64,000 nucleotides of DNA. Source: a virus (taxonomy: Duplodnaviria > Caudoviricetes). The stretch lies in the IMG/VR virus record IMGVR_UViG_3300043786_001086; one strand, given 5' to 3'. Below are positions 9,810 to 39,127 of the stretch, in pieces (position 1 is the first letter of the stretch; each line of letters opens with the position of its first letter). Below the pieces are notes generated by a model that saw only the letters and a program-made list of their open reading frames with translations, ran no database searches and had not been told where the DNA came from. Position numbers and translations under genes: made by a program.

Positions 9810-10358
9810 TTAACTTAAATAATTTGACATATTTTTAGCGGCTTCAAATGCTTCTTCCATTGTTTCAATCAATTTTGATCCTCTTAATTTGAATGGTATT
9901 ACATAAGATATTCCGTCTTCATCCATCCATTTTCTACCAAGTTCATCTTCTTCTTGATATAAATCCGCGAACTTTGTTTCGTATTCATTCCATTGTTCTT
10001 CAGGGTAATCTTCTTTAACGGGTTCATAATCCCCATCAAATAATCTATCTCCGATTTTGAAAAGACTACCACCTCTGTGAGTGTATCCATACATCCCTTC
10101 GATAACAGGGTTATCAGTTCCATATGTATCTTCGATAATAACCGCAGCAACTCCGTGGGGATAATTTTCATCAACCATCATTTTATTTTTAACATACCAT
10201 CTTGCTTCATCAATACTACCGATATATGTTCCATCAGGCGATAAGAATGAATTTTCCAATGTGTTTTCGTTGTTTGGTCCAAATGTATGTGTTCCAATTT
10301 TTCCCCCTGTTAATCTTTCAATTTCTTGAATTTCTTCTTGTGAAATTTTTTTTTTCAT
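9810..10358 (-). CDS. Hypothetical protein
   Basis: 182-aa ORF. Confidence 0.75.
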   Translation of the reverse strand: MKKKISQEEIQEIERLTGGKIGTHTFGPNNENTLENSFLSPDGTYIGSIDEARWYVKNKMMVDENYPHGVAAVIIEDTYGTDNPVIEGMYGYTHRGGSLFKIGDRLFDGDYEPVKEDYPEEQWNEYETKFADLYQEEDELGRKWMDEDGISYVIPFKLRGSKLIETMEEAFEAAKNMSNYLS

Positions 10359-10713: not shown

Positions 10714-11397
10714 TTAAAATTTTCTTTCTTTCATCATTCTTTTAAGACATTGTTTAATTGTCTCACCTTTATTAGTGTCGTGTCCCGCACCATAAGTTCC
10801 TCCTTTATATGAATCAACACCTTTCCCAATCGGATTACTGAAATCAACATCAATACTTCGTCTTACTTTTCTAAAAAGTCGTGTCCACCTGAACATTCTT
10901 GGTCTCCATTCTCTTTCCTCTAACTTACAAGTGGCCTCAGTATCTTGGAACAAATCGTCGTGAATGTAATAGTATTTATGTGTTTCTTTATGGATTTTTT
11001 CTTTCCATTCAGGAGTATAAAAATCAATTTTATTTTTTTTGGTTTGGTGTGCCCATGTTCCATCTTTTAGAAATTTGGATGTTCTTACCCAATCATATTG
11101 CCAAGGTAAATCAATACATTTTATTTTTTTTGTTCCTCTATGGATCCATAATGAATCAGGAAACCAACTACCTACCGAATAAAAATAAAATCCATATTTT
11201 GGTCTTTCATCCTTATATTTTGGTGGTTTGTTTGTTTTGAATGTCATATAAAATTGACCCCAAATAAAACAAAAATCTAATTTCCAATTTAATCCATTAC
11301 TTGGTAGGTATCTTAAATTCCATTTATGGAATCCAGGGTAAAACTCCATCCAATCATTTCTCCATCTACCAGGTTCAACCTTTCTTAATCCTAACAT
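10714..11397 (-). CDS. Hypothetical Trp-rich protein
   Basis: 227-aa ORF. Confidence 0.75.
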   Translation of the reverse strand: MLGLRKVEPGRWRNDWMEFYPGFHKWNLRYLPSNGLNWKLDFCFIWGQFYMTFKTNKPPKYKDERPKYGFYFYSVGSWFPDSLWIHRGTKKIKCIDLPWQYDWVRTSKFLKDGTWAHQTKKNKIDFYTPEWKEKIHKETHKYYYIHDDLFQDTEATCKLEEREWRPRMFRWTRLFRKVRRSIDVDFSNPIGKGVDSYKGGTYGAGHDTNKGETIKQCLKRMMKERKF

Positions 11398-11540: not shown

Positions 11541-12374
11541 TTAATCTTTGTATTTGTAATTGTCAAATTTTTTATTTTTACTTAAAACCCTCCATCTTAT
11601 CGTTGCCATAGGTAGATTAAGTATTTTGGATGCCTCACCAGCAGAACGGTATTCAACATCATCAATTATTATTGGTATATTCTGTTCTCCATTATAAGTT
11701 CCTTTTCTGATTTCACTTAACTTATTTTTAGTTTCTTCCGAATGTTGTTTACCAAAAAATGGATTATCGTCATTACTTCTTGGTCTACATTTATTACAAT
11801 GAGTGTGACCGTAACCTATTCTTTTACCACATTCACAATAGACATAAGTTAAACCTCCCTTCCAATTAGGATTTTGTTCTTTATCATAACTTCTTCTATT
11901 ATCTAATGATTTTTTTACAATTTCTTTAGGTATTTTCTTACCTTTCCAAAATCCTTCTTTACCATACATTCCATTTTTTTCGCCAGATACACTTTCACTT
12001 CTTTTTTTTCTTTCATCATCACTGATATTGTCCCAATACTTTTTTGTTGAGAGTCTTTGGTTTTCAACCCAATTCTCATCATACTTAATAAATTCAGATA
12101 AATCTCCACCAGTGCCACCTTCAGTTAAATTATAGCCGTTTGCAATTGTTTTGAGTTTATCAATCCAAAAAATTTCTTTTTCATTCAACTCATCTTTATT
12201 AGAACACTCTTCTAAAATAGTTTTAGAGAAATTTTCTAACCCATATTTTTTTATGGCTAACTTAATCAACTTTCCACTCCCAAAATATTTTTCAAATGAT
12301 AATCCACTATATTGTCCGACATAAGATTTACCATTAATGTTGTTTTTTATTTCATAAACTAAAAATTTCTTCAT
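11541..12374 (-). mobile_element. Free-standing GIY-YIG homing endonuclease (NUMOD3/NUMOD1-type tail)
   Basis: LVYEIKN.INGKSYVGQ...YFGSG...E..WI...GYN; PFFGKQHSEETK. Confidence 0.88.
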
Positions 12375-12429: not shown

Positions 12430-13524
12430 TTAGTTAGAAAGTGGCATTTTTATACTTGGGTGTGATTTGTAATTTTTAAGTGTGAAATCGCCAATAGTAT
12501 AAGATTCTATTGATGGTCTTGAACCTTCATAGGTGGGGAACTGATTAAGAGTTGGTAATTCAAATGGTTCTCTTGTTAATTGTTCTTTCACACCATCAAT
12601 TTGATTTAGATATATGTGACAATCTCCCATATTTGAAATCAATTCTTCAGGTACCATATTAACCTCTTTTGCCAATATCATCAAAAGTAACCCATATGAA
12701 GCCAAATTAAATGGAAGCCCGAGCGGAACATCATTGCTTCTCATATTGAACATTAAAGAGATTGCCCTGGTTGGTATACTACAATCATTGAATAAACTAT
12801 TCCATCCATTTTCATCTGTCGGAAAAATATCTTTAACATAAGACGATTTATCATATATGTCTTTTCTTTCCTGTAAACTGAACTCTCTTGTATAAATTTG
12901 AAATCCATAATGACAAGGTGGAAGAGTCATCTGGTCCAATTCCGATGGGTTCCAAGCTGTAACCATCAATCTTCGGCTATCAGGATTTGTTTTAAGGTCG
13001 TGAATAAGATTTTTTATCTGGTCAAGTTTAGGCACTTCAGAAAAATGAGTAACAGCCCCATGATTCCATCCTGAAGGTTTTTTATCAAAGCCACCCCACG
13101 CTCTCCATTGTCTACCATACACAGGACCTAAATCTCCCCACTTCTTAGCAAACTCATCATCTGTTTTGATTTTGTTGATGAACTCTTCTTGTGTACTAGG
13201 CCATCCTATTGCAACTAAATTTTGGTAACCTCCAGAGATAATCTTTTGACCGTAGTTCTTATAAGCATCACCGTCCCAAATATGACAATCATTATCTATA
13301 AGGTATTTAATGTTCGTATCACCACGTAGGAACCAAATCAATTCAGTTACAATTCCTTTCCAAAACATTTTCTTGGTTGTGAGTAAAGGAAATCCTTCAC
13401 TCATGTTGTGTCTGATCTGACGACCAAAAACACTGATGGTTCCTCCATTTCTTGTTTCTTTTTTTACCCCATTATCCAAAATATCTTGAAGTAAATCTTG
13501 GTATTGTTTGTCTAAATTATTCAT
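12430..13524 (-). CDS. thyA: Thymidylate synthase ThyA
   Basis: FPLLTTKK, ELIWFLRG, DLGPVYG.QWR, DSRR, PPCH, LGLPFN, GDCHIY; uninterrupted. Confidence 0.95.
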   Translation of the reverse strand: MNNLDKQYQDLLQDILDNGVKKETRNGGTISVFGRQIRHNMSEGFPLLTTKKMFWKGIVTELIWFLRGDTNIKYLIDNDCHIWDGDAYKNYGQKIISGGYQNLVAIGWPSTQEEFINKIKTDDEFAKKWGDLGPVYGRQWRAWGGFDKKPSGWNHGAVTHFSEVPKLDQIKNLIHDLKTNPDSRRLMVTAWNPSELDQMTLPPCHYGFQIYTREFSLQERKDIYDKSSYVKDIFPTDENGWNSLFNDCSIPTRAISLMFNMRSNDVPLGLPFNLASYGLLLMILAKEVNMVPEELISNMGDCHIYLNQIDGVKEQLTREPFELPTLNQFPTYEGSRPSIESYTIGDFTLKNYKSHPSIKMPLSN

Positions 13525-13529
13525 TTTCG

Positions 13530-14378
13530 TTATTTTTTATATTCCCATTTATAACCACCAGCGGTTTCTTGTTTTCCTTTACATACCGCAGATATATTGA
13601 ATATTTTTAATTGTTTTTCAACTTCTGTTATACTATCCCAAGTATAAAGTAAATTACCATTTAAATCAAATTGTAAAACCTGTAATCTTTTTTTTGATGA
13701 TCCTGTTGACACACCTTTTTTCAATTTTGATAGTTTTTCTGAAAACCCTTTTGGTTTAGGTTTTCTCATTTTATTTTTTGTTTCTTCAGATAGTTTCCTA
13801 CCTTTACCCGCCTTTGATATTTTTTCTTTGGCTTCGTCAGTATGCTTCCACCCATTCTCTAATTTATATTGCTGATGTTGTGATATTTTTAATCTCCATT
13901 CAAAATGTCTTCTATCGGCCTCTTCTTTACCATATTTTTCTAACCATAAACTATAACGACCTTTTTTAGTTAGTTCTGTGCCGTTTTCCTTGTTATGTTT
14001 TATGATTTTTTCAATTTGTTGTTTTTTTCTAATATCAGCTTCTTCCTGACCGTGTTTTTCAACCCAATAATTATAAATTCCGTTTTTAGTAATGTCTTGA
14101 CCTATTTGTCTGTCACCCTCTTTACCACCATTACTTATATTATAACCAATTTTTCTATCTTGACTATTATATTTTAATATCCAGTAAACTTCTCTTTCAT
14201 TCATATGATTTTCATCAACACACTCTTCTAAAATTTCTTTTACAAAATTTTCTTTACCATATTTTTTTATGGCTCTTTGTATTTTTTTACCACTTCCGAA
14301 GTAAGATGGGTTATTATTTCTATCTTGACCGATATAGATTTTATTATTAAGATTGTTAGTTATTTTATAGATAATCAT
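13530..14378 (-). mobile_element. Free-standing GIY-YIG homing endonuclease
   Basis: IIYKITN..N.KIYIGQ..YFGSG; HTDEAKEKIS; QFDLNG..W.S...TAGGYKW. Confidence 0.88.
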
Positions 14379-19681: not shown

Positions 19682-19795
19682 AGACTATATTTGTAAACCC
19701 CATTATCTAATTCAACATCCAACAACCCATCATTTTCTAATATTTTTTTATCAAATCCCATCTTTAACTCCATTTTCAATTGTTTCTAATTTCAT
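19678..19795 (-). pseudogene. Chimeric remnant: DTIQNGVK-type repeat joined to 3' end of a 28783..29100 paralog
   Basis: MKLETIENGVKDGI* (19751-19795) overlapping ...KILENDGLLDVELDNGVYKYSL*. Confidence 0.6.
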
Positions 19796-19901
19796 ATTAT
19801 TTATTTTTAAATTTTTCAAATTTATTTTGTCCAACCCACAAAAAAGAAAAGAAAAAGGTTCAGTTCTCCGAATGAGCATTTGTGGTTAATTACCGTACTA
19901 C

Positions 19902-19956
19902 TGCTAACAGCGTGTATAAAACATTAAAACGATTTTATACACGCAAAACGTTAGCG
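19902..19956 (+). other. attC-like site 1 (backbone site, 55 bp)
   Basis: TGCTAAC A GCGTGTATAAAA...TTTTATACACGC AAAAC GTTAGCG. Confidence 0.85.
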
Positions 19957-19960
19957 GTAA

Positions 19961-20197
19961 TTATAGAACCGCCCAATGTGTAACTTTCTCCATAGTCATA
20001 AAACCGAAGATATTTTTCTTTGGTCTAATCCTAAAAGGTTTTTCATCTTCAATGCCGTTTTCAAATCTAACTGCATAGTAATCTTCGGTTTCAGGTAGTC
20101 GCTCCGTTACAGGAATCCATAAATAACTACCGCTAACATCAGATATATCCAATTTGGGGTTCTCTGCGTTATTCAAATTTTGTTCTTCTTTGTTCAT
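19961..20197 (-). CDS. Cassette 1: DUF551-like protein; starts inside attC2
   Basis: WIPVTERLPE...VTHW; N-terminal DISDVSGS encoded by attC arm/R''. Confidence 0.75.
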   Translation of the reverse strand: MNKEEQNLNNAENPKLDISDVSGSYLWIPVTERLPETEDYYAVRFENGIEDEKPFRIRPKKNIFGFMTMEKVTHWAVL

Positions 20198-20260
20198 TTT
20201 ATATTAATTTAAAGTTTATACTATTTAATCCCAAACTGGGCATATCTGCGACCGTTATAT
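20131..20260 (+). other. attC-like site 2 (130 bp)
   Basis: CGCTAAC..AGATATATCCAATTTGGG / CCCAAACTGGGCATATCT..GTTATAT. Confidence 0.85.
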
Positions 20261-20593
20261 TCAATTATTTTTATTTTTACGGGGATATATTCTAATACTA
20301 GTTAAATCATAATTATATTCAAATATATTCAAATTATCTGATAATTTATTTAAATGTTTTTCTATAAATTCCTCATAATCCCACCAATCTTCCATAGTCT
20401 CTGGCATCTCCCAGTCAATTTCATATTTAATGTAGATACTATTATCTCCTCTTTTAAGTATTTCTGTAAATTTAATAGGTGAATTCATAAATTCTTTCTC
20501 TATTTTACTTAAAATATTGTCCAATATATTTTCTTTAGAGAAATCATCTTCCAAAAGAGATTCAAATGTTTTTAAAAATTTTAATTTTCTCAT
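20261..20593 (-). CDS. Cassette 2: hypothetical with phage-type MRKLKFLKTFES leader
   Basis: ORF bounded by attC2 and attC3. Confidence 0.75.
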   Translation of the reverse strand: MRKLKFLKTFESLLEDDFSKENILDNILSKIEKEFMNSPIKFTEILKRGDNSIYIKYEIDWEMPETMEDWWDYEEFIEKHLNKLSDNLNIFEYNYDLTSIRIYPRKNKNN

Positions 20594-20669
20594 AGTTTTA
20601 ATTTTTTTTTATAATCTATATATTAATAAAAAAAAAACGGTTTTTTGAAATAATTGAAAAAATAACTGA

Positions 20670-20723
20670 ATATAACAAATGATAAACAACATTAAAACGA
20701 TTGTTTATCATCAGACGTTATAG
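20670..20723 (+). other. attC-like site 3 (54 bp)
   Basis: ATATAAC AAATGATAAACAACATTAAAACGATTGTTTATCATCAGAC GTTATAG. Confidence 0.85.
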
Positions 20724-20753
20724 GCAATATTTAAAAGTTTTTTTGCCATTGCA

Positions 20754-21311
20754 CTATTTAGAGTTTTCAAGTTGCTCAAGTTCTTTTTTCATCTTTTCAA
20801 TTCTCCTTTGTTTCGCATCTTCTTTATTAAGTTCGTAGTACTTTTTTAAAAGCAAATCAAACGAGTTAAAAACATCTTTTGCGTTTTCTAATTTCCAATA
20901 TAATCCGAGATTTACTTCGTCTATGTAATCAGGCGTAAATGATTTTAATTCAAGCCAAAACTTTTGAAAGAAATTTACGGCATAATCTTCTCCAAAAATG
21001 TATGCACCAGTTGGAAAGCATATTTGTAATAACATTTCATCTTCGGGCTGTATTCCATCAACGCTCCAAATTATAGTTCTTCTGTGTTTTTCGCCCCACA
21101 TCCCAATCGCCCTATATTCTCCAAACCTAACCCAATCCATATTTTTAATTTGTTTAGAGTCAATATTTAGCCCGTAAACTTCTTTCAGTTCAAGTCCAAA
21201 TAAATGTGTTTTGGCTTTTCTTTCCAATTCACTTACATCAAAAACGCAAATTTCTCTGTGTTTATGTAATGCTTTTAAAATTTCATCGTATGCTTCTTTT
21301 ACTTTTTTCAT
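20754..21311 (-). CDS. Cassette 3: hypothetical protein
   Basis: 185-aa ORF between attC3 and attC4. Confidence 0.8.
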   Translation of the reverse strand: MKKVKEAYDEILKALHKHREICVFDVSELERKAKTHLFGLELKEVYGLNIDSKQIKNMDWVRFGEYRAIGMWGEKHRRTIIWSVDGIQPEDEMLLQICFPTGAYIFGEDYAVNFFQKFWLELKSFTPDYIDEVNLGLYWKLENAKDVFNSFDLLLKKYYELNKEDAKQRRIEKMKKELEQLENSK

Positions 21312-21363
21312 TTTATGTTTATTTTAATTGTTAATTCCTTCGCTAAAAACTTTTAAATACAGC

Positions 21364-21437
21364 CTATAACAGCACATACACGCTATTTCCCTGCCCTCAA
21401 TACAACGCTCACAGCGTGTATGTGCAAAACGTTATAA
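21364..21437 (+). other. attC-like site 4 (74 bp)
   Basis: CTATAAC A GCACATACACGCT...AGCGTGTATGTGC AAAAC GTTATAA. Confidence 0.88.
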
Positions 21438-21444
21438 GTTATTT

Positions 21445-21861
21445 TCATAATATCTCATAATCTTTTAATATTTGAATATGGTGTTCTCTCCATTTATTTT
21501 TTGAAACTCCAATTGAGTTAGATTTTATGAATTTCCACCCATGATAATACGCACCTAATTCTCGTTTTAATACATTTCTACCATATTCGTAAGGACAAAC
21601 ATTATATACATAGATATAATCTCTAAAAGTTAGAAAATGTCCATATTCATGTAGAAGTGTTAGAAACATATTCTCATTAGATTGTTCTGAATTTACATAT
21701 ATTATCTGTTTCAAAAAATTAAATCTCCCACCTATATCCCCAAATTTTGAACTATCTATAATCTCAACTTTTATGTTTTTTTGAACTTCTTCTTTTAAAA
21801 GATTGAATTCATTCATATAAAAGTCATCAATTTCCTTTACTATTAAATCTACCATATTCAA
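21445..21861 (-). CDS. Cassette 4: putative zinc metallopeptidase (ImmA/IrrE-like)
   Basis: TLLHEYGH (HExxH) plus downstream E..A. Confidence 0.65.
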   Translation of the reverse strand: MNMVDLIVKEIDDFYMNEFNLLKEEVQKNIKVEIIDSSKFGDIGGRFNFLKQIIYVNSEQSNENMFLTLLHEYGHFLTFRDYIYVYNVCPYEYGRNVLKRELGAYYHGWKFIKSNSIGVSKNKWREHHIQILKDYEIL

Positions 21862-21878
21862 ATATAATAAAAAACAAC

Positions 21879-21932
21879 TTATAACAAATGATAAACAACA
21901 TTAAAACGATTGTTTATCATCGGACGTTAGCG
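21879..21932 (+). other. attC-like site 5 (54 bp)
   Basis: Interior near-identical to sites 3 and 7. Confidence 0.85.
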
Positions 21933-21939
21933 GCAAGTG

Positions 21940-22221
21940 CTACTCCTCCACCACTCTATCAGTTTTACCGCCATACAAACGAAACCACCCTGAACCTTCT
22001 GCCGAAACCAAAACATGTGTTTTGCTTGGTGAATGACTGCCATCGGAATGGTCAATAGCAGGAGTCGTTTCTGTGCGTACATGCTTTATTTTAAAACGGT
22101 GCATTACGGAATCATCAAGATTTAACATTTCGTAAAACTTTCCGATTAAATCCGCACCAGCCGCTAACAAGCGGTTAGCGTCATTGCCGTTTTCGTGGTT
22201 AATTGAAGTGTTGTTTTCCAT
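21940..22221 (-). CDS. Cassette 5: hypothetical; probable start MENNTS inside attC6
   Basis: ORF track extends to 22314 only by reading through the attC arm. Confidence 0.65.
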   Translation of the reverse strand: MENNTSINHENGNDANRLLAAGADLIGKFYEMLNLDDSVMHRFKIKHVRTETTPAIDHSDGSHSPSKTHVLVSAEGSGWFRLYGGKTDRVVEE

Positions 22222-22295
22222 ATCAAATTTTGTTTTTAAATTAAAGTTTCGTGTTCCAAAGTCGGCAACGAACGCCAACCGCCCAACCGTTATGT
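22162..22295 (+). other. attC-like site 6 (134 bp)
   Basis: CGCTAAC..GCGGTTAGCGTCATTGCCG / CGGCAACGAACGCCAACCGC..GTTATGT. Confidence 0.85.
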
Positions 22296-22317
22296 GTAAT
22301 AATTTTTTACCCACCTA

Positions 22318-22590
22318 CTAATAAATTTTATAAACTTCTAAATTTCTATGACTTTTCTTCAATACTCCTTTTTCTGTTTCTATACTAAACAAAGTGTCTC
22401 CGTTTTGAAGTTCTTCTTTATCTGTTATAACACCGTCCATTAAAGATTTATTAAAGTGAAAAGTTATTTTATCACCTATATTTAGTTGTTTGATTTCCAT
22501 CGGTGAAAATCCTCTTTCACCAGAACCATCTAAATATGATTTTCCTTCTTTTAAGAAGTTTTTAAATCTCTTAATTCTATTCTCTTTCAT
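22318..22590 (-). CDS. Cassette 6: hypothetical (KOW/SH3-like) with MKENRIKRFKNFLKE leader
   Basis: LNIGDKITF...GVI; own TATTTAT motif at 22657-22663. Confidence 0.75.
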   Translation of the reverse strand: MKENRIKRFKNFLKEGKSYLDGSGERGFSPMEIKQLNIGDKITFHFNKSLMDGVITDKEELQNGDTLFSIETEKGVLKKSHRNLEVYKIY

Positions 22591-22699
22591 AGTTCTGTCT
22601 TTTATTTTAAGTTTATATATAAAATCTCAGAACTGAATATATCTGAGATTTTATATATAAATAGTTCAAATTAAGAATTTCCACCCACAAAATTACTAC

Positions 22700-22753
22700 A
22701 CATAACAAATGATAAACAACATTAAAACGATTGTTTATCATCGGACGTTATAC
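22700..22753 (+). other. attC-like site 7 (54 bp)
   Basis: ACATAAC...GTTATAC; interior identical to site 5. Confidence 0.85.
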
Positions 22754-23125
22754 GCAAGCACTACCATTCTGCTCCGTATTGACAATTTCATCTACCGAAA
22801 GTAAATCGGATATATCTGCAAGATGAGTTTCTAAATCCATTCCTACCTGTTCGTAATCACAAAATCTGTGAAAACAATCTCCTTGTTCTCTATCTTGAAC
22901 ACAATCTCTTTCTTCTCCATTTTCCAAGAAAACACCACAACCAGTGCATTTATCACATACACTTTCTTCGGGGTGTTCTCCATCTCTCAAAACCCTACTT
23001 TGCCATCCTTTTGAATAAGCATTGTAGATTTTTTCTAAAACAGATTTTGTTTTTTCAACGAACTCTTTTTGGCTCATCTTGTATGGCTCTTGTGGTTCGA
23101 TTTTAAATAAGTCATCTATATTCAT
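22748..23125 (-). CDS. Cassette 7: Cys-containing hypothetical protein
   Basis: CDKCTGC...C...C; stop codon is the TAA of the GTTA core. Confidence 0.75.
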   Translation of the reverse strand: MNIDDLFKIEPQEPYKMSQKEFVEKTKSVLEKIYNAYSKGWQSRVLRDGEHPEESVCDKCTGCGVFLENGEERDCVQDREQGDCFHRFCDYEQVGMDLETHLADISDLLSVDEIVNTEQNGSACV

Positions 23126-23161
23126 TTCAATTAAATTTTGTTGTTAATTAACCGTGCCAGC

Positions 23162-23244
23162 GTATAACAGCGGTTTTGTGCAAGCTGCCCGACCGCTCAA
23201 TGCCAACGCTTCGCAGCCTGACACAAAGCCGCAAAACGTTAGCG
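23162..23244 (+). other. attC-like site 8 (83 bp)
   Basis: GTATAAC A GCGGTTTTGTG / CACAAAGCCGC AAAAC GTTAGCG. Confidence 0.88.
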
Positions 23245-23257
23245 GTAATAAAATTTA

Positions 23258-23443
23258 CTACAACCGTTCCGCAACCTTAGTACCTAATTTGTTATACTCT
23301 CTACCTTCTTCTTCTGCCATCAATCTTACAGCATCTTGTATCTGTTTAGGTAAATCATCACCAAATTTACCTAATAATTGGTATAACAAATTTTGCTTAG
23401 ATAAAGCATTTTCTCTTCTGATTAACAATTCTATTTCTTTCAT
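23258..23443 (-). CDS. Cassette 8: small hypothetical protein
   Basis: 61-aa ORF between attC8 and attC9. Confidence 0.65.
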   Translation of the reverse strand: MKEIELLIRRENALSKQNLLYQLLGKFGDDLPKQIQDAVRLMAEEEGREYNKLGTKVAERL

Positions 23444-23463
23444 AATACGTAAATTTTACATAC

Positions 23464-23595
23464 CGCTAACAAAGTATAACCAAAAGTGGGGCGGTAGTTC
23501 CCAAAATCAGTTATTGTGCTTCTAATTTACTTTTGTAGGTAAGTCTGGGTTTAGCACTTTTAATCCCCACCTTCGGTTATACTCAACCGTTATAA
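23464..23595 (+). other. attC-like site 9 (132 bp)
   Basis: CGCTAAC..AGTATAACC....GTGGGG / CCCCAC....GGTTATACT..GTTATAA. Confidence 0.85.
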
Positions 23596-23599
23596 AACA

Positions 23600-23800
23600 T
23601 TATAAACGACCACCCCACTCAAATTTTATTTCATCAACATTGTAGTCAATATTATAATCTCTTTTGAGTATTTCAATTGCTTCCAGTTTTGCTTCATCTT
23701 CGTTTGAAACAACTCCACCTAATCTAATCTCTTTTTTATTTATAGTCATACTGTGATTAGTACCAGCAAAACTTCCGTTCCAATAAAATTTTATTTCCAT
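23600..23800 (-). CDS. Cassette 9: small hypothetical protein
   Basis: 66-aa ORF. Confidence 0.7.
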   Translation of the reverse strand: MEIKFYWNGSFAGTNHSMTINKKEIRLGGVVSNEDEAKLEAIEILKRDYNIDYNVDEIKFEWGGRL

Positions 23801-23812
23801 ATAAATAACGTT

Positions 23813-23933
23813 TTATAACAACAAATATAAGCAATTATTTCATTACTTCCAAATAAATGTTGTTGGTTAATATTTAATTTTGTTCTTTTAATTAAGTTTC
23901 GTTAATAACTGCTTATATTTGCAACCGTTATAA
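23813..23933 (+). other. attC-like site 10 (121 bp)
   Basis: TTATAAC..CAAATATAAGCA / TGCTTATATTTG..GTTATAA. Confidence 0.85.
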
Positions 23934-23939
23934 GTAATA

Positions 23940-24215
23940 TTATTTTTGTTTTGTGATTTTTATATGATATTTTAACTTAACACTTTCTTCATTTGTTTCT
24001 AATATACCGAATACAATATCTAAAGTTTCTGGGTCAACCATCATTGGTGTGACTTTCAAATTAGAATCTAAATTTTTTAATGTATCTTCTATTTTTGATA
24101 CAATTACTTTAGGTATTCCACTATCAACATCTTTAAATGTACCTAAGAACTTATAATCTGATACATCTTCTTTATTAAACTCTATTTCAGGGGTTTTAAT
24201 AATATAATTTTCCAT
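23940..24215 (-). CDS. Cassette 10: hypothetical protein (probable start MENYII)
   Basis: ORF between attC10 and attC11. Confidence 0.7.
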   Translation of the reverse strand: MENYIIKTPEIEFNKEDVSDYKFLGTFKDVDSGIPKVIVSKIEDTLKNLDSNLKVTPMMVDPETLDIVFGILETNEESVKLKYHIKITKQK

Positions 24216-24255
24216 ATTTAATTTTTTTATAAGGTAAAACAAAAATAATACATAC

Positions 24256-24340
24256 TTATAACAACAAATATAAGAAATAAATTTTGATTTTCCAAATTTT
24301 TATAGGTAAAATTTACTTCTCATATTTGAAACCGTTAGCA
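24256..24340 (+). other. attC-like site 11 (85 bp)
   Basis: TTATAAC..CAAATATAAGAAATAAATTTT / AAAATTTACTTCTCATATTTG..GTTAGCA. Confidence 0.85.
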
Positions 24341-24349
24341 GTAATGCCA

Positions 24350-24583
24350 TCAAAACGTAATCAATGGTACTGTAAATGTCGTAACCTTGCCACAAGAAGG
24401 GCAGGTATATTCATAAGTTCCTGCTGTTAAATAAATGTGCATCGGTGGGTTATGGTCAGGATGTAGGCAAGGTTGCTCTGCATCTTTAATTTTACGAAGT
24501 CCACCTTTGGCACTACTGCTAACATTGTGTAAATTCAATGCCTGTGCAGTGCTTTGTTGATAATTTTCTACTTGATTTTTCAT
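24350..24583 (-). CDS. Cassette 11: zinc-ribbon-like protein; starts inside attC12
   Basis: CLHPDH...YTCPSCG; N-terminal LHNVSSS encoded by attC. Confidence 0.7.
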   Translation of the reverse strand: MKNQVENYQQSTAQALNLHNVSSSAKGGLRKIKDAEQPCLHPDHNPPMHIYLTAGTYEYTCPSCGKVTTFTVPLITF

Positions 24584-24648
24584 TTTATTTTTAATTTAAA
24601 GTTTATACTAATTTTACGGCACTGAAATTTACACAAGTACCGTTACCT
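24517..24648 (+). other. attC-like site 12 (132 bp)
   Basis: TGCTAAC..TTGTGTAAATTCAATGCC / GGCACTGAAATTTACACAA..GTTACCT. Confidence 0.85.
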
Positions 24649-24667
24649 GCCATTTTAAGACAGACCG

Positions 24668-25027
24668 CTAATCGTTCCATTCTTGACATTCAGTAATATC
24701 ATATTGCTTGAATACACCACGACCATCAGTATTAGTTATAATCAAAGCAAGATTTGATGAATAGTAGCCGTTGTTTGAGCCATAACCAGGTATTCTAACA
24801 GGATGTCCATTTTTAGGCTTTAAGGCTATTCCATAATCTTCTATTCTTTCAAAGAAATCATCATTTGACAAATCAAATTCCAATCCTTTAAAATCATCCA
24901 ATGTCAAATCTGACAAAGACAAATAGTGATGCTCACAGCATTGTTGGTCGTGGTCTGAAAATAAAATCATTCCATTATCAAATTCTAATGAATCTGAATC
25001 AATTTTTACTACTTTTAAATTTTCCAT
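24668..25027 (-). CDS. Cassette 12: hypothetical protein
   Basis: HDQQCCE...GYGSNNGYYS motifs. Confidence 0.8.
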   Translation of the reverse strand: MENLKVVKIDSDSLEFDNGMILFSDHDQQCCEHHYLSLSDLTLDDFKGLEFDLSNDDFFERIEDYGIALKPKNGHPVRIPGYGSNNGYYSSNLALIITNTDGRGVFKQYDITECQEWND

Positions 25028-25084
25028 TTTACTTTATTTTAATTGTTTATAAATCAAATCTGTGAGTTACCGACAAAAAACGGC

Positions 25085-25215
25085 AGGTAACATCGGTTTT
25101 GTGCAAGTGGGGCTGAATTGCTAAATTAAACAGCAGTAATTCTAATAGGCTTTTGTACTGATTTGAAACTTTCGTGTTCCAAATCCCCACCTGCACAAAG
25201 CCTTTTTCGTTAGCT
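25085..25215 (+). other. attC-like site 13 (131 bp)
   Basis: AGGTAAC..GGTTTTGTGCAAGTGGGG / CCCCACCTGCACAAAGCC..GTTAGCT. Confidence 0.85.
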
Positions 25216-25416
25216 GCCATTTACGACAGACTTCGCCATAGTAGCATTTTGCAAAATTGATATTGCTTGGTTCAACTCAATAATCATTTCCAAATCCGAC
25301 TTTGTATCGGGTATTGGACTGTCCAAACTTGCCCTGTGGACAATGATAGAGTTTTCAATAAAAGACCTTTCAGCCTTTTCACGCATTTCTTTTAATGTTC
25401 TAATTGTTCTTTCCAT
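25210..25416 (-). CDS. Cassette 13: hypothetical protein (probable start MERTIR)
   Basis: Stop is the TAA of the GTTA core; ORF track extends into attC14. Confidence 0.65.
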   Translation of the reverse strand: MERTIRTLKEMREKAERSFIENSIIVHRASLDSPIPDTKSDLEMIIELNQAISILQNATMAKSVVNGS

Positions 25417-25427
25417 AATTAAACGGC

Positions 25428-25521
25428 AGCTAACACTGCATTTGTGCAAGCGGGCGGACAGCTTGCGGTTAATATTAAGTTGCATCTATGCCCGCCTGAC
25501 ACAAATGCTTCAACGTTAGCA
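25428..25521 (+). other. attC-like site 14 (94 bp)
   Basis: AGCTAAC..GCATTTGTGCAAGCGGGC / GCCCGCCTGACACAAATGC..GTTAGCA. Confidence 0.88.
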
Positions 25522-25533
25522 GTAATACTACAT

Positions 25534-26184
25534 TTAGTCTTCGATTGAAGGTTCGTCTGTAATATCTTTTTCTTTTCTTTTTTCTCCCCCACCATTAAAT
25601 AATTCTTGAATTTTGTTAATTTCATCTTGTTTCCAAGTTCTATTTGTTTTACCGTCTTCTGAAATTGTCAAATATTGATAATCATACCTTAATGGTCTTT
25701 CAATTAACCAAGGTGTTGGTTCAGGTTTAACTGCAATCCAACCATCTTTCGTTTTACCAATAGGTTCAGTTCCCTCTATAATTTTTTCCGAGCCATCCAA
25801 TGGTAATAAATCTCTTGTTTCATTATAAATTATTCTTGTATCTTTGAATAGTTCATATACTAATCCAACATCTTCACCAGTCCATTCAGCATCTTCTGTT
25901 TGATGTTCGTATTTTTTTGCAAGAAAATAACCATCACATTCTGTTCTTAAAACATATTTTTGATGTAATATTTTTCTACATTCTCTATTATAATGGTCAA
26001 TAGTGTTTTGAATATCTTCTTGTCCTTTCCAATAGTTGTCTTCGCCTACCGAAAGCGAATCACCATTTTGTGGCTGTTCACCAACAAATTTTTGATTGTC
26101 TAAACAAGCCAGTATCATTTCAAAGGAATCTTCCGATATTACAATGTTTCCTTTACCGTCTTTTTTTGCTTCAATTTTCATCAT
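25534..26184 (-). CDS. Hypothetical protein
   Basis: 216-aa ORF. Confidence 0.75.
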   Translation of the reverse strand: MMKIEAKKDGKGNIVISEDSFEMILACLDNQKFVGEQPQNGDSLSVGEDNYWKGQEDIQNTIDHYNRECRKILHQKYVLRTECDGYFLAKKYEHQTEDAEWTGEDVGLVYELFKDTRIIYNETRDLLPLDGSEKIIEGTEPIGKTKDGWIAVKPEPTPWLIERPLRYDYQYLTISEDGKTNRTWKQDEINKIQELFNGGGEKRKEKDITDEPSIED

Positions 26185-26188
26185 AGTT

Positions 26189-27379
26189 TTAAATTTTAGT
26201 TTTTAACATTTCTTTATAAGCATTACCTGTATCAAATTGTTGTTCAAATGTTGGATTTGGATAATGTTCGTTTTTAATCCAATTATCGTGATGTTCAAAT
26301 GTTCTCCATTCATTATCACGTAATTCTTTTACCATATTCATCAATCCAGTTCCAACTTTCATATCAGAAGGAATTTCAACTCCACCATCTGGTGTAACTT
26401 TTTCAATTGTTTCTTCAATAAACATTTGGTTCAAGAATGTTACCTCTCTAGTTTCTTTAACACCATTTTCAATGGCATCATCAATACTTGATCCAAATGT
26501 GAATGGTCTATCAGATACGTCTTTAATACCACTTTGAATGGTGTCTTCAATACCGACTAATCTATCCGTTTTTGCTAACACAGTGTCCTTTACTCCATTT
26601 TGAATGGCGTCCTTAACCCCACTCCTTATCCTCATCCCATCTACTTCGGTGTGTCTTACCCCATTTTGAATGGTGTCTTCAACCTCATTATTTTGTTTTG
26701 GAGATTCAATTTGATGAACTATTTTCCCTTTCATCTCCATTGAACCCAAATAACCACTAGGTGTTGTTTCTTTCACCCCATTTTGAATGGTGTCTTCAAT
26801 GTATTTAATTGGTGGTGAATTGAATGTTCGTGTTTCTTTTACACCATTTTGAATTGCGATTTCAATACCACCTTTTCGGTAACCAATTTTGTAATTGGTT
26901 TCTTTCACCCCCTCTTGAATGGTATCTTCAACTAAGGTATTATTAGTATATTCAAAATAATCGGTGTGTCTTACCCCATTTTGAATGGTGTCTTTAACTG
27001 CAGAAATTTCATCCGCATTTAAATCCCAAGTGTGTTTCACCCCATTTTGAATGGTATCTTTAACCTTCAATGGTTTTCCAGCAGTGCTTAAACTTTCCTC
27101 AACCACATCAATACCCAAAAATCTTGATTCAAACCAGTTCTTGATCAAATCTCTTTCTTGAGTGCAGTCCTTACTGACTAGATCTAACTCATTTTGAAAT
27201 AGGTTATAGTTGAACCACAAAGTTTTATCTTTTGTGAATTCAACCACCCATCTTTTGTCTTCGGTAAAGATCAACCAAGTTGAACCTTGTTCTGTAATAT
27301 ACTTGTCTGCACCTTCAATCATTTGGTCAAACAACCCAAAGACAAGTTTCTCTAATTTTTTTCCTGATGGATTATTCAT
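26189..27379 (-). CDS. Family B protein (NPSGKKL domain plus 9 DTIQNGVK repeats)
   Basis: Probable start MNNPSG by homology with 27501..28070 and 38555..39106. Confidence 0.85.
   Translation of the reverse strand: MNNPSGKKLEKLVFGLFDQMIEGADKYITEQGSTWLIFTEDKRWVVEFTKDKTLWFNYNLFQNELDLVSKDCTQERDLIKNWFESRFLGIDVVEESLSTAGKPLKVKDTIQNGVKHTWDLNADEISAVKDTIQNGVRHTDYFEYTNNTLVEDTIQEGVKETNYKIGYRKGGIEIAIQNGVKETRTFNSPPIKYIEDTIQNGVKETTPSGYLGSMEMKGKIVHQIESPKQNNEVEDTIQNGVRHTEVDGMRIRSGVKDAIQNGVKDTVLAKTDRLVGIEDTIQSGIKDVSDRPFTFGSSIDDAIENGVKETREVTFLNQMFIEETIEKVTPDGGVEIPSDMKVGTGLMNMVKELRDNEWRTFEHHDNWIKNEHYPNPTFEQQFDTGNAYKEMLKTKI
26450..27064. CRISPR. In-frame CRISPR-like array 1: nine 36-nt repeats, 30-nt unique spacers (one 81 nt)
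   Basis: Consensus GGTGTKTCTTACCCCATTTTGAATGGTGTCTTYAAC, 66-nt period counted by hand; third-codon-position variation also present. Confidence 0.55.
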
Positions 27380-27500
27380 TTTATTTAATTTTTTCTCCGT
27401 TTTGAATGGTATATTCAACCCTTTTATATCGTAAGTCAGTTGATGTTCCTGTAGTGTGTTTCACCCCATTTTCAACGACATATTTCGTTCTCTGTTTTCT

Positions 27501-28070
27501 TTAACCATCATAACTTCGTTTTGTTTGTTTCACTCCATTTTCAATTGTGTCTATAATATAATGAGTCGCATCCAAACGCCACTCTTGGGTCTCCTTTACC
27601 CCGTTTTGAATGGTGTCTTCAACCAGGTCGGCCAGCGAAGCCAATTTTCCGCCGGTGTGTTTCACCCCATTTTGAATGGTATCTTCAACTGATATCCTGC
27701 GCAATGCGGACCTAACCTTGGTGTTCTTCACCCCATTTTGAATGGTGTCTTCAATTTGATACCACACATCTACCGGATTGTCCCAAGTTTTATCAACCTT
27801 TGGTTTATTCAAAAATCTATATTCAAACCATCTGGTTATGTATTCTTTATTTTCAACGCAATCCATACCAACCAATTCCATTTCATTTTTGAATAGTTTG
27901 TAGTTATACCATAGAGTTCCTCCTTCGGTATATTCAACAACCCATTGTCGTTCATTGGTAAAGATGATCCATAAACTACCACTATGATTGTATTGGTCAA
28001 CACCTTCAATCATTTGGTCAAATAGTTTGAACAAAATCTTATCTAATTTTTTTCCTGATGGATTTTTCAT
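27501..28070 (-). CDS. Family B protein (4 repeats; premature TAA in a spacer)
   Basis: Paralog; two further degenerate repeats continue in frame to ~27381. Confidence 0.85.
   Translation of the reverse strand: MKNPSGKKLDKILFKLFDQMIEGVDQYNHSGSLWIIFTNERQWVVEYTEGGTLWYNYKLFKNEMELVGMDCVENKEYITRWFEYRFLNKPKVDKTWDNPVDVWYQIEDTIQNGVKNTKVRSALRRISVEDTIQNGVKHTGGKLASLADLVEDTIQNGVKETQEWRLDATHYIIDTIENGVKQTKRSYDG
27522..27755. CRISPR. In-frame CRISPR-like array 2: four 36-nt repeats, 30-nt spacers
   Basis: Repeats at 27522, 27588, 27654, 27720. Confidence 0.55.
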
Positions 28071-29853: not shown

Positions 29854-30441
29854 TCATTTTAAAAAATTAATAACCTTTTCTTTAATCCCACTTTGTTTAA
29901 TACCTTCTCTTGATCTTGGTGTTAAAACAAAATTAGTTAGACCAGGGTTTTTATCCTCACTATCCAAGAAGTATTTTGATAAAAACTCAAGACTCATATT
30001 AAGATCATCAATCGCAACCCAATGTGTGACTTCAGGATGATTCTTTAACCAATGTCCGATCTCCATACTTCGTTCTAATTCCAACTCAGCACGAAATCTA
30101 AACGCATTCCATTCTTTTGGAAAAAGGTCTCTAAATATGTCAGTCACCGCAATTGGTCGTTTAATAATACCTTGACTAATATAGTAATCACCAAGTTCAT
30201 CAAGTGTTGCATGTAATCTCCAATCAGAACTTACCACTATTTCACATCCAGTTTCTTCAATGATCTCATTTAGAACTTTAATTGTCCCTTTATCAAAGTC
30301 ATCAAAACGATATTGCACCGGAATTTCTCTTGGGGTCATGGATAATTTTCTTCCTCCCCATTTGTGTTGTTTTTTGTAACGACTACCCCAATTATTAGAG
30401 AGACAAATTACACTATCATGATCTAAGAATATAACTTTCAT
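29854..30441 (-). CDS. HAD-family protein (Swiss-Army-knife RNA-repair type)
   Basis: IFLDHD.V, IVVSSDWR, WVAIDD. Confidence 0.8.
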   Translation of the reverse strand: MKVIFLDHDSVICLSNNWGSRYKKQHKWGGRKLSMTPREIPVQYRFDDFDKGTIKVLNEIIEETGCEIVVSSDWRLHATLDELGDYYISQGIIKRPIAVTDIFRDLFPKEWNAFRFRAELELERSMEIGHWLKNHPEVTHWVAIDDLNMSLEFLSKYFLDSEDKNPGLTNFVLTPRSREGIKQSGIKEKVINFLK

Positions 30442-31076
30442 TATCTTATTGTTTGTGTTAATCTTTCGTAATTACTTTTGTTTTCAAATTGTCTTCCAAT
30501 TCTATACAAGTGGTTTGGGGATAAACCAAACCAAGTGTCACAGTGATGGAACTTTGAAAATTGTTCTGTCAACATATCTGAATCATCGTCTAATATTGCG
30601 TAATCATCAACTTCAGGGTGTTGATCCAACCACTCTTTAATTTCTTCACCTCGTAAAGTTCTTCTATTACCAGTGATTCCTACATAAGTTCCTGGTTTAA
30701 ATCCAAGTTTAACAAATGCGTCTTCCCATCTATAAGGTGTTGATATATGATCCTCAATACGAAAGTGATGTTTCCAACTCGAAGAAACACAAATTTTTGT
30801 GTTAGTTTTATTACACCATTCGCTCAACCATTTCCACTTTTGATCACAAGTTTCTTCTCGTAAATCCTTGAATTGATATTCAAAAGTGAAAGACTTTTTA
30901 GGTGGTTTATAATCCGCCAAAGAAACTCCTTTTGATTTAATTCTAAACAATTTTCTAACCAATCGCTTTAATTCATACCACCATGTGATAGGTTTTCTCC
31001 ATCGTCTTCTATGTCTTTCTTTATAAAAAACATTAGAGTTCATAACTCCATCAATATCCAAGAATATAACTTTCAT
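30441..31076 (-). CDS. HAD-family protein (Swiss-Army-knife RNA-repair type)
   Basis: IFLDIDGV, VSSSWK, RG.EI..WL, YAILDDDSD. Confidence 0.85.
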   Translation of the reverse strand: MKVIFLDIDGVMNSNVFYKERHRRRWRKPITWWYELKRLVRKLFRIKSKGVSLADYKPPKKSFTFEYQFKDLREETCDQKWKWLSEWCNKTNTKICVSSSWKHHFRIEDHISTPYRWEDAFVKLGFKPGTYVGITGNRRTLRGEEIKEWLDQHPEVDDYAILDDDSDMLTEQFSKFHHCDTWFGLSPNHLYRIGRQFENKSNYERLTQTIR

Positions 31077-39106: not shown

Positions 39107-39127
39107 TTTATTTTAGCATTTCAGAAA

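Follow-up and report, generated by a model that had tools for sequence, protein, structure and literature searches.

A phage-specific, integron-like cassette system proposed from a hairpin-bounded gene array in a giant freshwater phage

How did a long row of small genes, each set off from the next by a hairpin, come to lie in the genome of a giant freshwater phage, and which enzyme might have moved its parts? Within the window analysed here (the whole 64-kb stretch of phage DNA), 14 hairpin sites of AAC...GTT form are interspersed with 13 minus-strand ORFs, a single one in each interval between neighbouring sites (Table 1). The preliminary description had seen here 14 imperfect palindromes forming an integron-type cassette array in a jumbo phage. 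Site and ORF positions agree with that layout, and the CheckV estimates of relatives, which imply a genome of ~290 kb, agree with the size.

Hairpin sites and cassettes

Sites were called with a custom scanner rather than IntegronFinder, and their coordinates run from the start of AAC to the end of GTT on the + strand. TAAC...GTTA cores and paired inner arms are present in all 14. No comparable hairpin site was found elsewhere in the 64 kb, where the remaining scanner matches lie at the level of shuffled background (3-14 per shuffle). The site consensus was built from 362 unique sites. Each site has an outer R stem of 12-16 bp that contains the TAAC/GTTA core and 4-5 positions specific to the cassette, then a bulge of 3-5 nt on one side only and a covarying inner stem; the short sites have the conserved loop CATTAAAACGA. 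On visual inspection, the spacer lies on one side (5 nt vs 0-2 nt) and the R stem exceeds 7 bp, whereas the attC model has unpaired spacer on both sides and extrahelical bases; an Rfam search of the sites gave no relevant match. A cassette consists of one hairpin site, a 5' UTR and one small ORF that points away from the hairpin, and 229 of 247 cassettes have this ORF antisense to the site top strand. At three sites in the window, the ORF to the left begins within the site itself.

The window sites fold more stably than mononucleotide shuffles (mean z ~-3.8), and in 14/14 the minus strand folds more stably than the plus strand because of a conserved A-versus-G difference at position 11. Compensatory changes affect 10 of 11 inner-stem pairs, pairing holds in 97% of cells, and the loop is invariant; judged by this alignment, the hairpin structure is under selection.

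Table 1. Sites, cassette ORFs and insertion features of the array (positions in the window)
Feature	Position	Strand	Remarks
Site 1	19906..19952	+	Short hairpin, loop CATTAAAACGA
Site 2	20135..20256	+	Long hairpin; ORF 19961-20197 begins inside loop
Site 3	20674..20719	+	Hairpin A
Site 4	21368..21433	+	
Site 5	21883..21928	+	Hairpin A
Site 6	22166..22291	+	Long hairpin; ORF 21940-22221 begins inside loop
Site 7	22704..22749	+	Hairpin A
Site 8	23166..23240	+	~85% similarity to Flavobacterium Muminvirus phage sites
Site 9	23468..23591	+	
Site 10	23817..23929	+	
Site 11	24260..24336	+	
Site 12	24521..24644	+	Long hairpin; ORF 24350-24583 begins inside loop
Site 13	25089..25211	+	
Site 14	25432..25517	+	R' arm (GTTAGCAGTAATAC) opens split cassette
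Cassette 1 ORF	19961..20197	-	78 aa, DUF551
Cassette 2 ORF	20261..20593	-	110 aa, no family
Cassette 3 ORF	20754..21311	-	185 aa, no family
Cassette 4 ORF	21445..21861	-	~136-138 aa, weak M78-peptidase-like match
Cassette 5 ORF	21940..22221	-	93 aa
Cassette 6 ORF	22318..22590	-	90 aa
Cassette 7 ORF	22748..23125	-	125 aa, Cys-rich
Cassette 8 ORF	23258..23443	-	61 aa
Cassette 9 ORF	23600..23800	-	66 aa
Cassette 10 ORF	23940..24218	-	~92 aa
Cassette 11 ORF	24350..24583	-	77 aa, zinc-ribbon-like
Cassette 12 ORF	24668..25027	-	119 aa, DUF7448
Cassette 13 ORF	25210..25419	-	58-91 aa, start varies among gene calls
Left 15-nt direct repeat	19773..19787	+	TTTTCAATTGTTTCT
Right 15-nt direct repeat	26400..26414	+	
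Split 14th ('GCAG') cassette, 5' part	19773..19905	-	R' box, 5' UTR, first ORF1 codons (ATG 19797)
Split 14th ('GCAG') cassette, 3' part	25516..26414	-	ORF2 and last 74 codons of ORF1
ORF2 of split 'GCAG' cassette	25534-26184	-	216 aa
Chimeric ORF	26189..27418	-	409 aa; 1-335 resident repeat protein, 336-409 cassette ORF1
Orphaned tail	19753..19797	-	Cassette ORF1 start joined to resident gene's last codons (MKLETIENGVKDGI*)

Cassette ends and the G|TT crossover

If cassettes are exchanged by crossover at G|TT, as had been suggested from the sequence alone, the two ends of each cassette should complement each other and differ from those of other cassettes. At the variable positions 5-9, we matched the bases that follow each GTT against the reverse-complemented bases that precede the next AAC. 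The 11 window cassettes scored by the scanner all matched at 5/5 positions, a score that random pairs reach in only 2.4% of cases; the ends of the remaining two are complementary when read by eye, and neighbouring ends that do not belong to the same cassette are not complementary at the variable positions. Both example pairs of the preliminary description were found in the sequence. The same comparison for 245 non-redundant pairs of adjacent sites, taken from the window and from viral loci, gave a mean match of 4.14/5, with 147 pairs perfect, as against 1.89 for the two arms of the same site and 1.85 for random pairs.

Homology to the same cassettes in other phages starts exactly at G|TT. The counterpart of cassette 12 in L077 is 87.5% identical over the whole cassette and carries a different hairpin, and here too homology begins at G|TT; a 256-kb recombinase-bearing phage has in its array a homologue of cassette 8, with 79% identity at the DNA level. 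The left flank of hairpin A is kept in 145 pairs and its right flank in only 9. There are two exceptions to this linkage between a hairpin and the cassette on its left: cassette 9, which in L016 is 88% identical in DNA but attached to another hairpin, and cassette 4, whose gene stands in a different context in L046 with a different R''/hairpin. In both, the spacer adjoining GTT differs. End complementarity and the onset of homology at G|TT are together the signature of a true cassette array with G|TT-type crossover, and that part of the original reading is upheld.

A Xer-like recombinase beside related arrays

Members of the hairpin-site family occur in >100 viral contigs, and cultured Flavobacteriaceae phages carry them as well. 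Arrays in other phages adjoin a gene for a 266-residue Xer-like tyrosine recombinase, which most resembles XerA 4A8E (E 4e-37) and the XerC/XerD models (E 1e-46 to 1e-47). It is without the IntI-specific insert (35 residues there vs 83 in VchIntIA) and scores 161 bits against TIGR02249, for which the cut-off is 265. Homology to the recombinase was the sole criterion for choosing 75 recombinase loci. Of the sites in them, 264 are upstream and oriented as expected, 3 are upstream the wrong way round and 2 are downstream, and sites are present in 54 of the 59 loci having at least 1 kb upstream of the recombinase. A conserved attI-like junction, TAAC|TAtaTTATATA, is found between array and gene, ~50 nt ahead of the latter, and the cassette genes point towards the recombinase. 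From this genomic association, the 266-residue enzyme is likely the mover of the sites.

Two Polaribacter phages, Freya_1 and Freya_10, differ by a 4.9-kb multi-ORF block that has a hairpin site at its opening and GCTAAC at its end; the DNA flanking the block matches at 100% across 7,079 nt to one side and at 99.8% across 2,421 nt to the other. The insertion point is exactly ...TTTACAAC|ACCCC..., and a recombinase of 36% identity is encoded downstream of it. Read from the two genomes, the difference is recent activity in a cultured relative.

These observations also bear on the possibility that the hairpins are regulatory elements (terminators or T4-type promoter-stem-loops, PeSL) shuffled by homologous recombination during co-infection, without a dedicated recombinase. 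Such exchange within shared hairpins cannot yield cassette-specific complementary ends (4.14/5 vs 1.85/5 at random), nor can it produce an onset of homology exactly at G|TT behind unrelated hairpins; and it leaves unexplained the strict polarity, the near-obligate adjacency to one recombinase family and the Freya insertion exactly at the recombinase-side junction. We thus regard it as improbable, even though the hairpins are intergenic and 5' of every ORF, the motif TATAAACTTTAAAT stands immediately upstream of the start codon in three cassettes, identical 36-nt hairpins across many phages (the hairpin A core is shared by >113 viral stretches) would be good substrates for homologous exchange, and the window array did enter through a short-homology event (see below). 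In the PeSL cassettes of T4-type phages, exchange is regarded as homologous and cassette-specific complementary ends are lacking, whereas here the two ends of a cassette complement each other specifically and homology stops precisely at G|TT.

Relation to integrons and to other Xer systems

According to Cury et al. 2016, an integron is reportedly IntI together with an attC array. The phage system resembles integrons, sedentary chromosomal ones included, in having a terminal recombinase gene whose transcription, referred to the site top strand, leads away from the array; a distinct junction site by the recombinase, followed by a row of single-gene cassettes; one imperfect palindrome per cassette, with AAC/GTT cores that conform to RYYYAAC / GTTRRRY, G|TT crossover and complementary ends; and one strand that folds better than the other. 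In integron cassettes, however, a promoterless ORF precedes the attC site and is read in the direction leading away from integrase and attI, an arrangement that the phage cassettes do not fit: their ORFs face the recombinase and the hairpin is at the 5' end. The phage system further differs in its 266-aa Xer-like enzyme without the IntI-specific insert, its 12-16 bp outer stem with a fixed asymmetry at position 11, its one-sided 3-5 nt bulge instead of a two-sided unpaired spacer, the conserved loop of its short sites and its carriers, which are phages and not bacteria.

Apart from phage "CALINs" (Qi et al. 2023, PMC9892861), we found no published description of this phage system. That study reported CALINs in virulent phages, including Polaribacter phage P12002L, with two to few sites per phage, and read the sites as components of bacterial integrons; 5/6 phage attC sites recombined with IntI1, and P12002L_attC1 gave no verified junction. 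P12002L is a Flavobacteriaceae phage with a cluster of attC-like sites and no integrase, and P12002L_attC1 shares the loop, the cores and the one-sided spacer with the window sites. That account describes neither a recombinase of phage origin nor an attI-like site, and it does not report that the genes are reversed in orientation or that the sites are widely distributed (Qi et al. 2023, PMC9892861).

That the hairpin family is essentially missing from 185,579 bacterial species genomes, in which the 36-nt hairpin occurs once, on a 1.4-kb MAG contig, argues against a classical integron CALIN, that is, attC sites made or moved by a bacterial IntI and taken up from a chromosomal integron of the host. 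The RYYYAAC...GTTRRRY-like cores, the imperfect palindrome, the crossover at G|TT and both the attC/CALIN classification and the IntI1 results for comparable phage sites favour such an origin, but it is at odds with the Xer-like enzyme without IntI insert beside the arrays, the reversed orientation of 229/247 cassette ORFs, the R box of at least 12 bp and the conserved loop, and the only tested site of the family, P12002L_attC1 with its identical loop, is the one that failed to recombine with IntI1; we consider it very improbable indeed. The Xer-like enzyme, the reversed genes, the near-absence of the hairpins from bacteria and the IntI1 failure likewise leave the label 'integron-type' unsupported in its strict sense.

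The pdif modules of Acinetobacter plasmids carry shuffled accessory genes between short, ~28-bp duplex XerC/XerD sites of alternating orientation. Movement of the present units by host XerC/XerD, as in pdif arrays/IMEX, with the phage Xer-like gene serving dimer resolution, integration or such, is equally remote despite the enzyme's nearest likeness to Xer proteins and the presence of cassettes without a recombinase gene in Muminvirus phages and in the window, since the sites here are 46-126 nt hairpins and not 28-bp dif-like sites, have a single orientation within the array, whereas pdif modules alternate, and are tied to the recombinase gene by a conserved junction at the array end that dimer resolution or integration would not need. 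With PeSL and pdif systems the phage arrays do share small accessory genes in hyperplastic regions, bounded by repeated sites, structured or of Xer type, and shuffled between genomes.

The array as an insert in a resident gene

In the window phage, the array is a 6.6-kb insert that interrupts a resident gene and is flanked by a 15-nt direct repeat. Its ends correspond to the two halves of a single cassette, which L144 has unbroken (95% identity for the 5' part and 93% for the other), and the R'' arm of site 1 (ACTACTGCTAAC) complements the R' arm of site 14, not its own R'. In the relative L128 the resident gene is intact and the array absent; the L128 repeat gene also differs from that of the window by ~390 nt. 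Because the insert ends are halves of one cassette, L128 is empty and the 15-nt repeat flanks the insert, the arrangement fits the integration of a 14-cassette circle via microhomology, as far as one intact-cassette comparison and one empty-site relative can indicate.

Two contigs from two other samples carry the array with 100% identity, and it therefore looks inactive in this phage. In agreement with the earlier remark that the window holds no integrase, neither Pfam scans, which covered most ORFs from 150 aa upwards, nor tblastn with the family recombinase detected a tyrosine recombinase there, unlike in an integron, where IntI stands beside the array; the recombinase is also absent from a 93%-complete 272-kb relative. 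With 14 attC-like sites and no recombinase in 64 kb, the locus has the layout of a CALIN (cluster of attC sites lacking an integrase), a class defined by two or more attC sites near one another and without an integrase in the vicinity. The idea of a capture platform that uses a host or distant-phage enzyme stands in so far as a gene for the likely enzyme is present in other phages; an active platform in this phage is not supported, given the disrupted gene in which the array lies, its apparent en-bloc, microhomology-mediated insertion and its identity across samples.

Proposed origin and movement of the cassettes

We propose, with a probability of roughly 80%, that the array belongs to a phage-specific, integron-like cassette system of Flavobacteriaceae/Bacteroidota phages whose Xer-like enzyme is encoded elsewhere, and that it derives here from an inserted 14-cassette circle. 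Strand exchange would take place at G|TT on the + strand of the window, and a free cassette would therefore be circular, its single site fully paired; sites reconstituted as in circular cassettes fold better than the array sites in 14/14 cases (-24.0 vs -15.8 kcal/mol). The likely enzyme would be the 266-residue Xer-like tyrosine recombinase, encoded in other phages at the array end behind the attI-like junction, and to judge by folding energies only, it probably works on the folded minus strand. A comparable case is the attP of CTX phage, where XerCD acts on a hairpin of single-stranded phage DNA and exchanges one strand pair, much as is proposed here for a Xer-type tyrosine recombinase on folded single-stranded phage DNA; in CTX the whole phage integrates at the host dif via host enzymes, and neither cassettes nor arrays nor an enzyme of the phage's own are involved.

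The array in this phage would not have been assembled in place. A 14-cassette circle may instead have entered the resident repeat-protein gene by way of a 15-nt microhomology, an event that would have cut one cassette in two and joined its ORF to the resident gene. Since the recombinase is not nearby, the array would be a static CALIN-like block, movable only in trans, for example during co-infection.

We lean slightly towards a broader proposal, in which Bacteroidota phages possess a self-contained integron analogue, with a minimal Xer-like enzyme that dispenses with the domain considered essential for recombining hairpins and that would excise promoter-bearing cassettes and insert them by way of folded single-stranded sites, and in which the window preserves the footprint of a free circle of 14 cassettes. 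If this is true, cassette circles pass among co-infecting phages, from 38-kb siphoviruses to phages of >400 kb, and the system either arose independently or is related to the Xer-to-IntI ancestor. The ORF of cassette 1 has a 90% homologue in LR756500.1, which stands there without hairpin flanks.

Recombination sites and cassette ends

The array comprises 14 sites that share one plus-strand form (...TAAC, 0-2 nt, arm, loop, arm, about 5 nt, GTTA...), and between each pair of sites lies a single minus-strand ORF of about 60-185 aa. A site scanner written ad hoc for this analysis and applied to the whole 64 kb placed array sites within 19902-25521 only, the remaining matches being weak and at most as frequent as in shuffled sequence; Rfam returned chance-level matches only. 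The preliminary description had reported that the bases following the GTT upstream of each cassette match the reverse complement of those preceding its own downstream AAC. This was correct, both worked examples included: all five variable positions matched in 11 of the 11 cassettes scored by script, and the end match of the remaining two window cassettes was read by eye. Random arm pairs reached 5/5 in 2.4% of trials, and the two arms of a single site, as they stand in the array, matched no better than random. Among non-redundant cassettes (n=245), the end match was 4.14 of 5; same-site arms scored 1.89, random pairs 1.85. The site collection holds 424 oriented sites from the window and viral loci, 362 of them in unique contexts. 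The left-hand consensus is A-C-T-R-NNN-M-TAAC and the right-hand one GTTA-K-NNN-Y-A-A-T, which gives an outer stem of at least 12 bp with 4-5 cassette-specific core positions. Outside this grammar is a perfect 20-nt inverted repeat inside cassette 6 (TTTATATATAAAATCTCAGA and its complement around a 10-nt loop), which sits between site 7 and the ORF start.

Cassette polarity and site folding

Contexts of hairpin A, the 36-nt core of sites 3, 5 and 7, shared the left flank in 145 pairs and the right flank in only 9. In addition, three long window sites hold the start codon and first codons of their left-hand ORF, and cassettes 12, 4 and 9, found again in other viral contigs at 83-88% identity, show a homology onset exactly at G|TT, behind unrelated hairpins. 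These data place the exchange at G|TT on the window's plus strand. Each hairpin thus forms a unit with its left-hand ORF and occupies the 5' end of that gene. Exceptions to this linkage are cassette 9, which has another hairpin in viral locus L016, and cassette 4, which has another R'' arm (an outer stem half) in locus L046. The longest ORF ran antisense to the site's top strand in 229 of 247 cassettes, the reverse of the gene orientation in integron cassettes.

Three cassette start codons are preceded, at a distance of about 10-15 nt, by the motif TATAAACTTTAAAT. Overall, the motif is about as frequent as chance would give, and the three best copies all lie inside the array, with none of that quality elsewhere in the window, so a genome-wide promoter was rejected; the motif may be a cassette-borne promoter or leader element.

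The hairpin structure itself is under selection, since short sites with unrelated arms (n=18) carry compensatory double changes at 10 of 11 inner-stem pairs, and 97% of their inner-stem cells are paired, versus 30-45% with the partner slid. The 11-nt loop, CATTAAAACGA, is nearly invariant among short sites and is presumably a recognition element. At position 11 the right arm carries A (94%) and its left-arm partner C (69%; G in the reverse complement), which yields a C.A mismatch in the folded plus strand and a G.T wobble in the folded minus strand. With DNA parameters, the minus strand was the more stable in 14/14 window sites, and these folding energies suggest that it is the reactive strand. 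When each site was rebuilt as in a circular cassette, with its left arm and hairpin kept and the right arm taken from the start of the same cassette, all 14 became more stable (mean from -15.8 kcal/mol in the array to -24.0 kcal/mol), including site 1 closed by the right arm of site 14.

Recombinase-bearing arrays

Three large hairpin-bearing phage records each gave a tyrosine-recombinase family match, two of them intact genes of 266-268 aa. The best models were XerA-, XerC- and XerD-like, all under cut-off, and the integron-integrase model scored 161 bits against a cut-off of 265. In an alignment to VchIntIA (2A3V), 35 residues in the phage protein stand against 83 in the integron integrase IntI; the IntI-specific insert is thus missing, and the catalytic motifs look intact. 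Using tblastn, the recombinase gene was found in about 20 loci that had been fetched solely for hairpin A, always at one end of the array. A second, independent set of 75 loci was chosen by recombinase homology alone (55-100% identity). Upstream of the gene, this set holds 264 sites oriented as expected and 3 oriented the other way; another 2 sites are downstream. Where at least 1 kb of upstream sequence was available (59 loci), 54 loci have sites. The final cassette closes with ...TAAC, and next comes a conserved TA(t/g)aTTATATA, some 50 nt ahead of the recombinase start codon, which makes an attI-like junction. The term 'integron-type' in the preliminary description thus suits the layout, which recombinase-bearing arrays share with integrons; it does not suit the enzyme, which is Xer-like and lacks the IntI insert, or the reversed cassettes.

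That the window itself holds no integrase was borne out by Pfam scans of most of its ORFs of at least 150 aa and by tblastn with the family enzyme, neither of which found a recombinase gene in the 64 kb; the gene is also absent from a 93%-complete 272-kb relative. One window ORF with a weak PHROG match to integrases (E 1e-4), not backed by Pfam, was rejected as a candidate.

A 36%-identical recombinase is encoded by the cultured Polaribacter phages Freya_1 to Freya_10, whose genome lengths shift together with the position of its gene. Freya_1 and Freya_10 differ by a 4.9-kb block of about a dozen ORFs; the flanks of this block are 100% identical along 7,079 nt to one side and 99.8% identical along 2,421 nt to the other. 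The insertion point falls exactly between ...TTGTTTACAAC and ACCCCTATAAC..., some 50 nt before the recombinase gene. A hairpin with an ORF start in its loop opens the block and ...GCTAAC closes it, as would be predicted for insertion at an attI-like site.

In L002 (LR756500.1), a 462-kb uncultured phage, a 90% homologue of the cassette 1 ORF without hairpin flanks directly adjoins a Xer-like recombinase fragment (residues 32-104), which looks like a decayed array end. Among disrupted recombinase genes (L121/L122/L095, L112), one is split by an insert of about 0.8 kb in a 465-kb phage and that of L112 is frameshifted. Many viral contigs, among them L175, L176, L178, L191, L215, L216 and L229, break off upstream of the recombinase gene, within a distance of 50-180 nt. 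The repeated hairpins are the probable break points in assembly, and arrays would therefore be under-represented in assembled data.

Entry of the array and its present state

The left arm of site 1 is complementary to the right arm of site 14, like the two ends of one cassette. The same cassette is intact in L144, a 256-kb recombinase-bearing phage, in the order hairpin, GTTAGCAGTAGTAC, 5' UTR, 74-codon ORF1, 216-aa ORF2, ...ATTACTGCTAAC, and its two parts match the two flanks of the window array. L128, a close relative with neighbouring genes up to 97-100% identical, has no array and an uninterrupted repeat-protein gene; this gene carries about 390 nt of extra repeats, and L128 is therefore not the true ancestor. 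In the window, a chimeric ORF joins the resident gene's first 335 codons in frame with the last 74 codons of cassette ORF1, the other junction joins the first codons of ORF1 to the resident gene's last codons (MKLETIE|NGVKDGI*), and an identical 15 nt, TTTTCAATTGTTTCT, occurs at both. Growth of the array in place from a solitary resident hairpin was rejected because the two flanks make up a single cassette whose break lies within an ORF, not at a hairpin. The simplest account of the locus is insertion of a circle: a circular molecule of 14 cassettes and 14 hairpins would have integrated by a single crossover at the 15-nt microhomology, splitting one cassette and leaving 14 sites around 13 whole cassettes. 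The split-cassette footprint would then be rare natural evidence for a multi-cassette circular intermediate.

Over stretches of 15.4 kb and 7.4 kb that take in parts of the array, contigs of two other samples, one from ENA and one from JGI, match the window at 100% identity, and assembled contigs of 24 lake or freshwater runs (2016-2024), 12 of which may be the source sample of the window, each hold at least 81% of the region's sampled words. No array variant was found among the matching assembled contigs. The array thus looks static in this phage, at odds with its proposed role as a gene-shuffling platform.

Coordinates of features in the window and in other viral loci
Feature	Sequence	Position	Strand	Detail
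Array, sites 1-14	window	19902-25521	+	
Inverted repeat	window	22612-22661		
TATAAACTTTAAAT copies	window	20207-20220, 22604-22617, 24594-24607	-	
Flank, 5' part of L144 cassette	window	19924-19773		95% identity
Flank, rest of L144 cassette	window	26414-25514		93% identity
L128 gene match	window	up to 26400, resuming at 19766		
TTTTCAATTGTTTCT copies	window	19773-19787, 26400-26414		
Repeat-motif proteins	window	26189-28070, ~38560-39110		(D/E)TIQNGVK(D/E)T; array inserted in one such repeat
Split-cassette ends shared with L001	window	19838-19907, 25515-25590		
Methyltransferase cassette	L001 (MN812227)	2826-3710		
Cassette 1 ORF homologue	L002	5801-6244		
Rejected integrase candidate	window	55266-56480		
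Tad6 match	window	9810-10358	-	Thoeris inhibitor, E 3.5e-14
Acb3 match	window	10714-11397	-	CBASS inhibitor, E 4e-31
GIY-YIG/NUMOD homing-endonuclease-like genes	window	11541-12374, 13530-14378		
Thymidylate synthase gene	window	12430-13524		
HAD_SAK_2 paralogues	window	29854-30441, 30441-31076, 42235-42837		
RNA ligase	window	36426-37553		
Overlap with relative G001	window	44.9-61.4 kb		outside array

Distribution and earlier work

The exact 36-nt hairpin A occurs in more than 113 stretches of IMG/VR contigs that range from 4 kb to 465 kb; among 185,579 bacterial and archaeal genomes (one per species), it was found just once, in a 1.4-kb MAG contig. Sites that follow this grammar and bear this end signature flank DNA methyltransferase genes in the cultured Flavobacterium phage vB_FspS_mymlan6-1. 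A methyltransferase cassette of L001, from a cultured Flavobacterium phage, keeps both split-cassette ends (about 70 nt each, AAAAAAGAAAAGAAAAAG tract included) around a different gene, that is, one cassette 'frame' with different cargo. BLASTP of all Muminvirus ORFs against the window recovered methyltransferases only, with no shared candidate enzyme, and Muminvirus gp001, which adjoins its array, had no match in a Pfam search.

Qi et al. 2023 (PMC9892861) reported 17 phage 'CALINs' (attC clusters without an integrase), one of them in Polaribacter phage P12002L, whose attC1 was the sole site of six tested without verified IntI1 recombination. Its loop, cores and one-sided spacer are all the same as in the window sites. 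A full-text literature search returned nothing that describes the Xer-like enzyme or the attI-like junction, the reversed design of the cassettes or how widely they are spread. The mechanistic steps that we infer go beyond the sequence patterns; if they hold, gene capture by hairpin recombination would not be limited to bacteria or IntI, and accessory-gene swapping among unrelated aquatic phages, including that of the DNA methyltransferases of cultured Flavobacterium phages, would be explained. The phage enzyme would likewise offer a minimal recombinase for studying single-stranded hairpin recognition without the IntI insert, and it would bear on how integrons arose from Xer-type enzymes. Polaribacter Freya, Cellulophaga Ingeline and Flavobacterium Muminvirus provide cultured phage-host pairs suited to testing.

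The host phage

The window derives from a phage with a Bacteroidota host. Its gene products include an amidase, an RNA ligase, GIY-YIG endonucleases and a protein that ends in a type-IX-secretion sorting tail, and CheckV estimates of relatives imply a genome of about 290 kb. An exact-word search of metagenome contigs with the window returned a 50-kb relative only, and the IMG/VR relative G001 overlaps the window elsewhere than in the array. We also note two neighbouring ORFs that match anti-defence families, a thymidylate synthase gene bracketed by homing-endonuclease-like genes, and three paralogues of HAD_SAK_2, an RNA-repair 'Swiss army knife' HAD domain.
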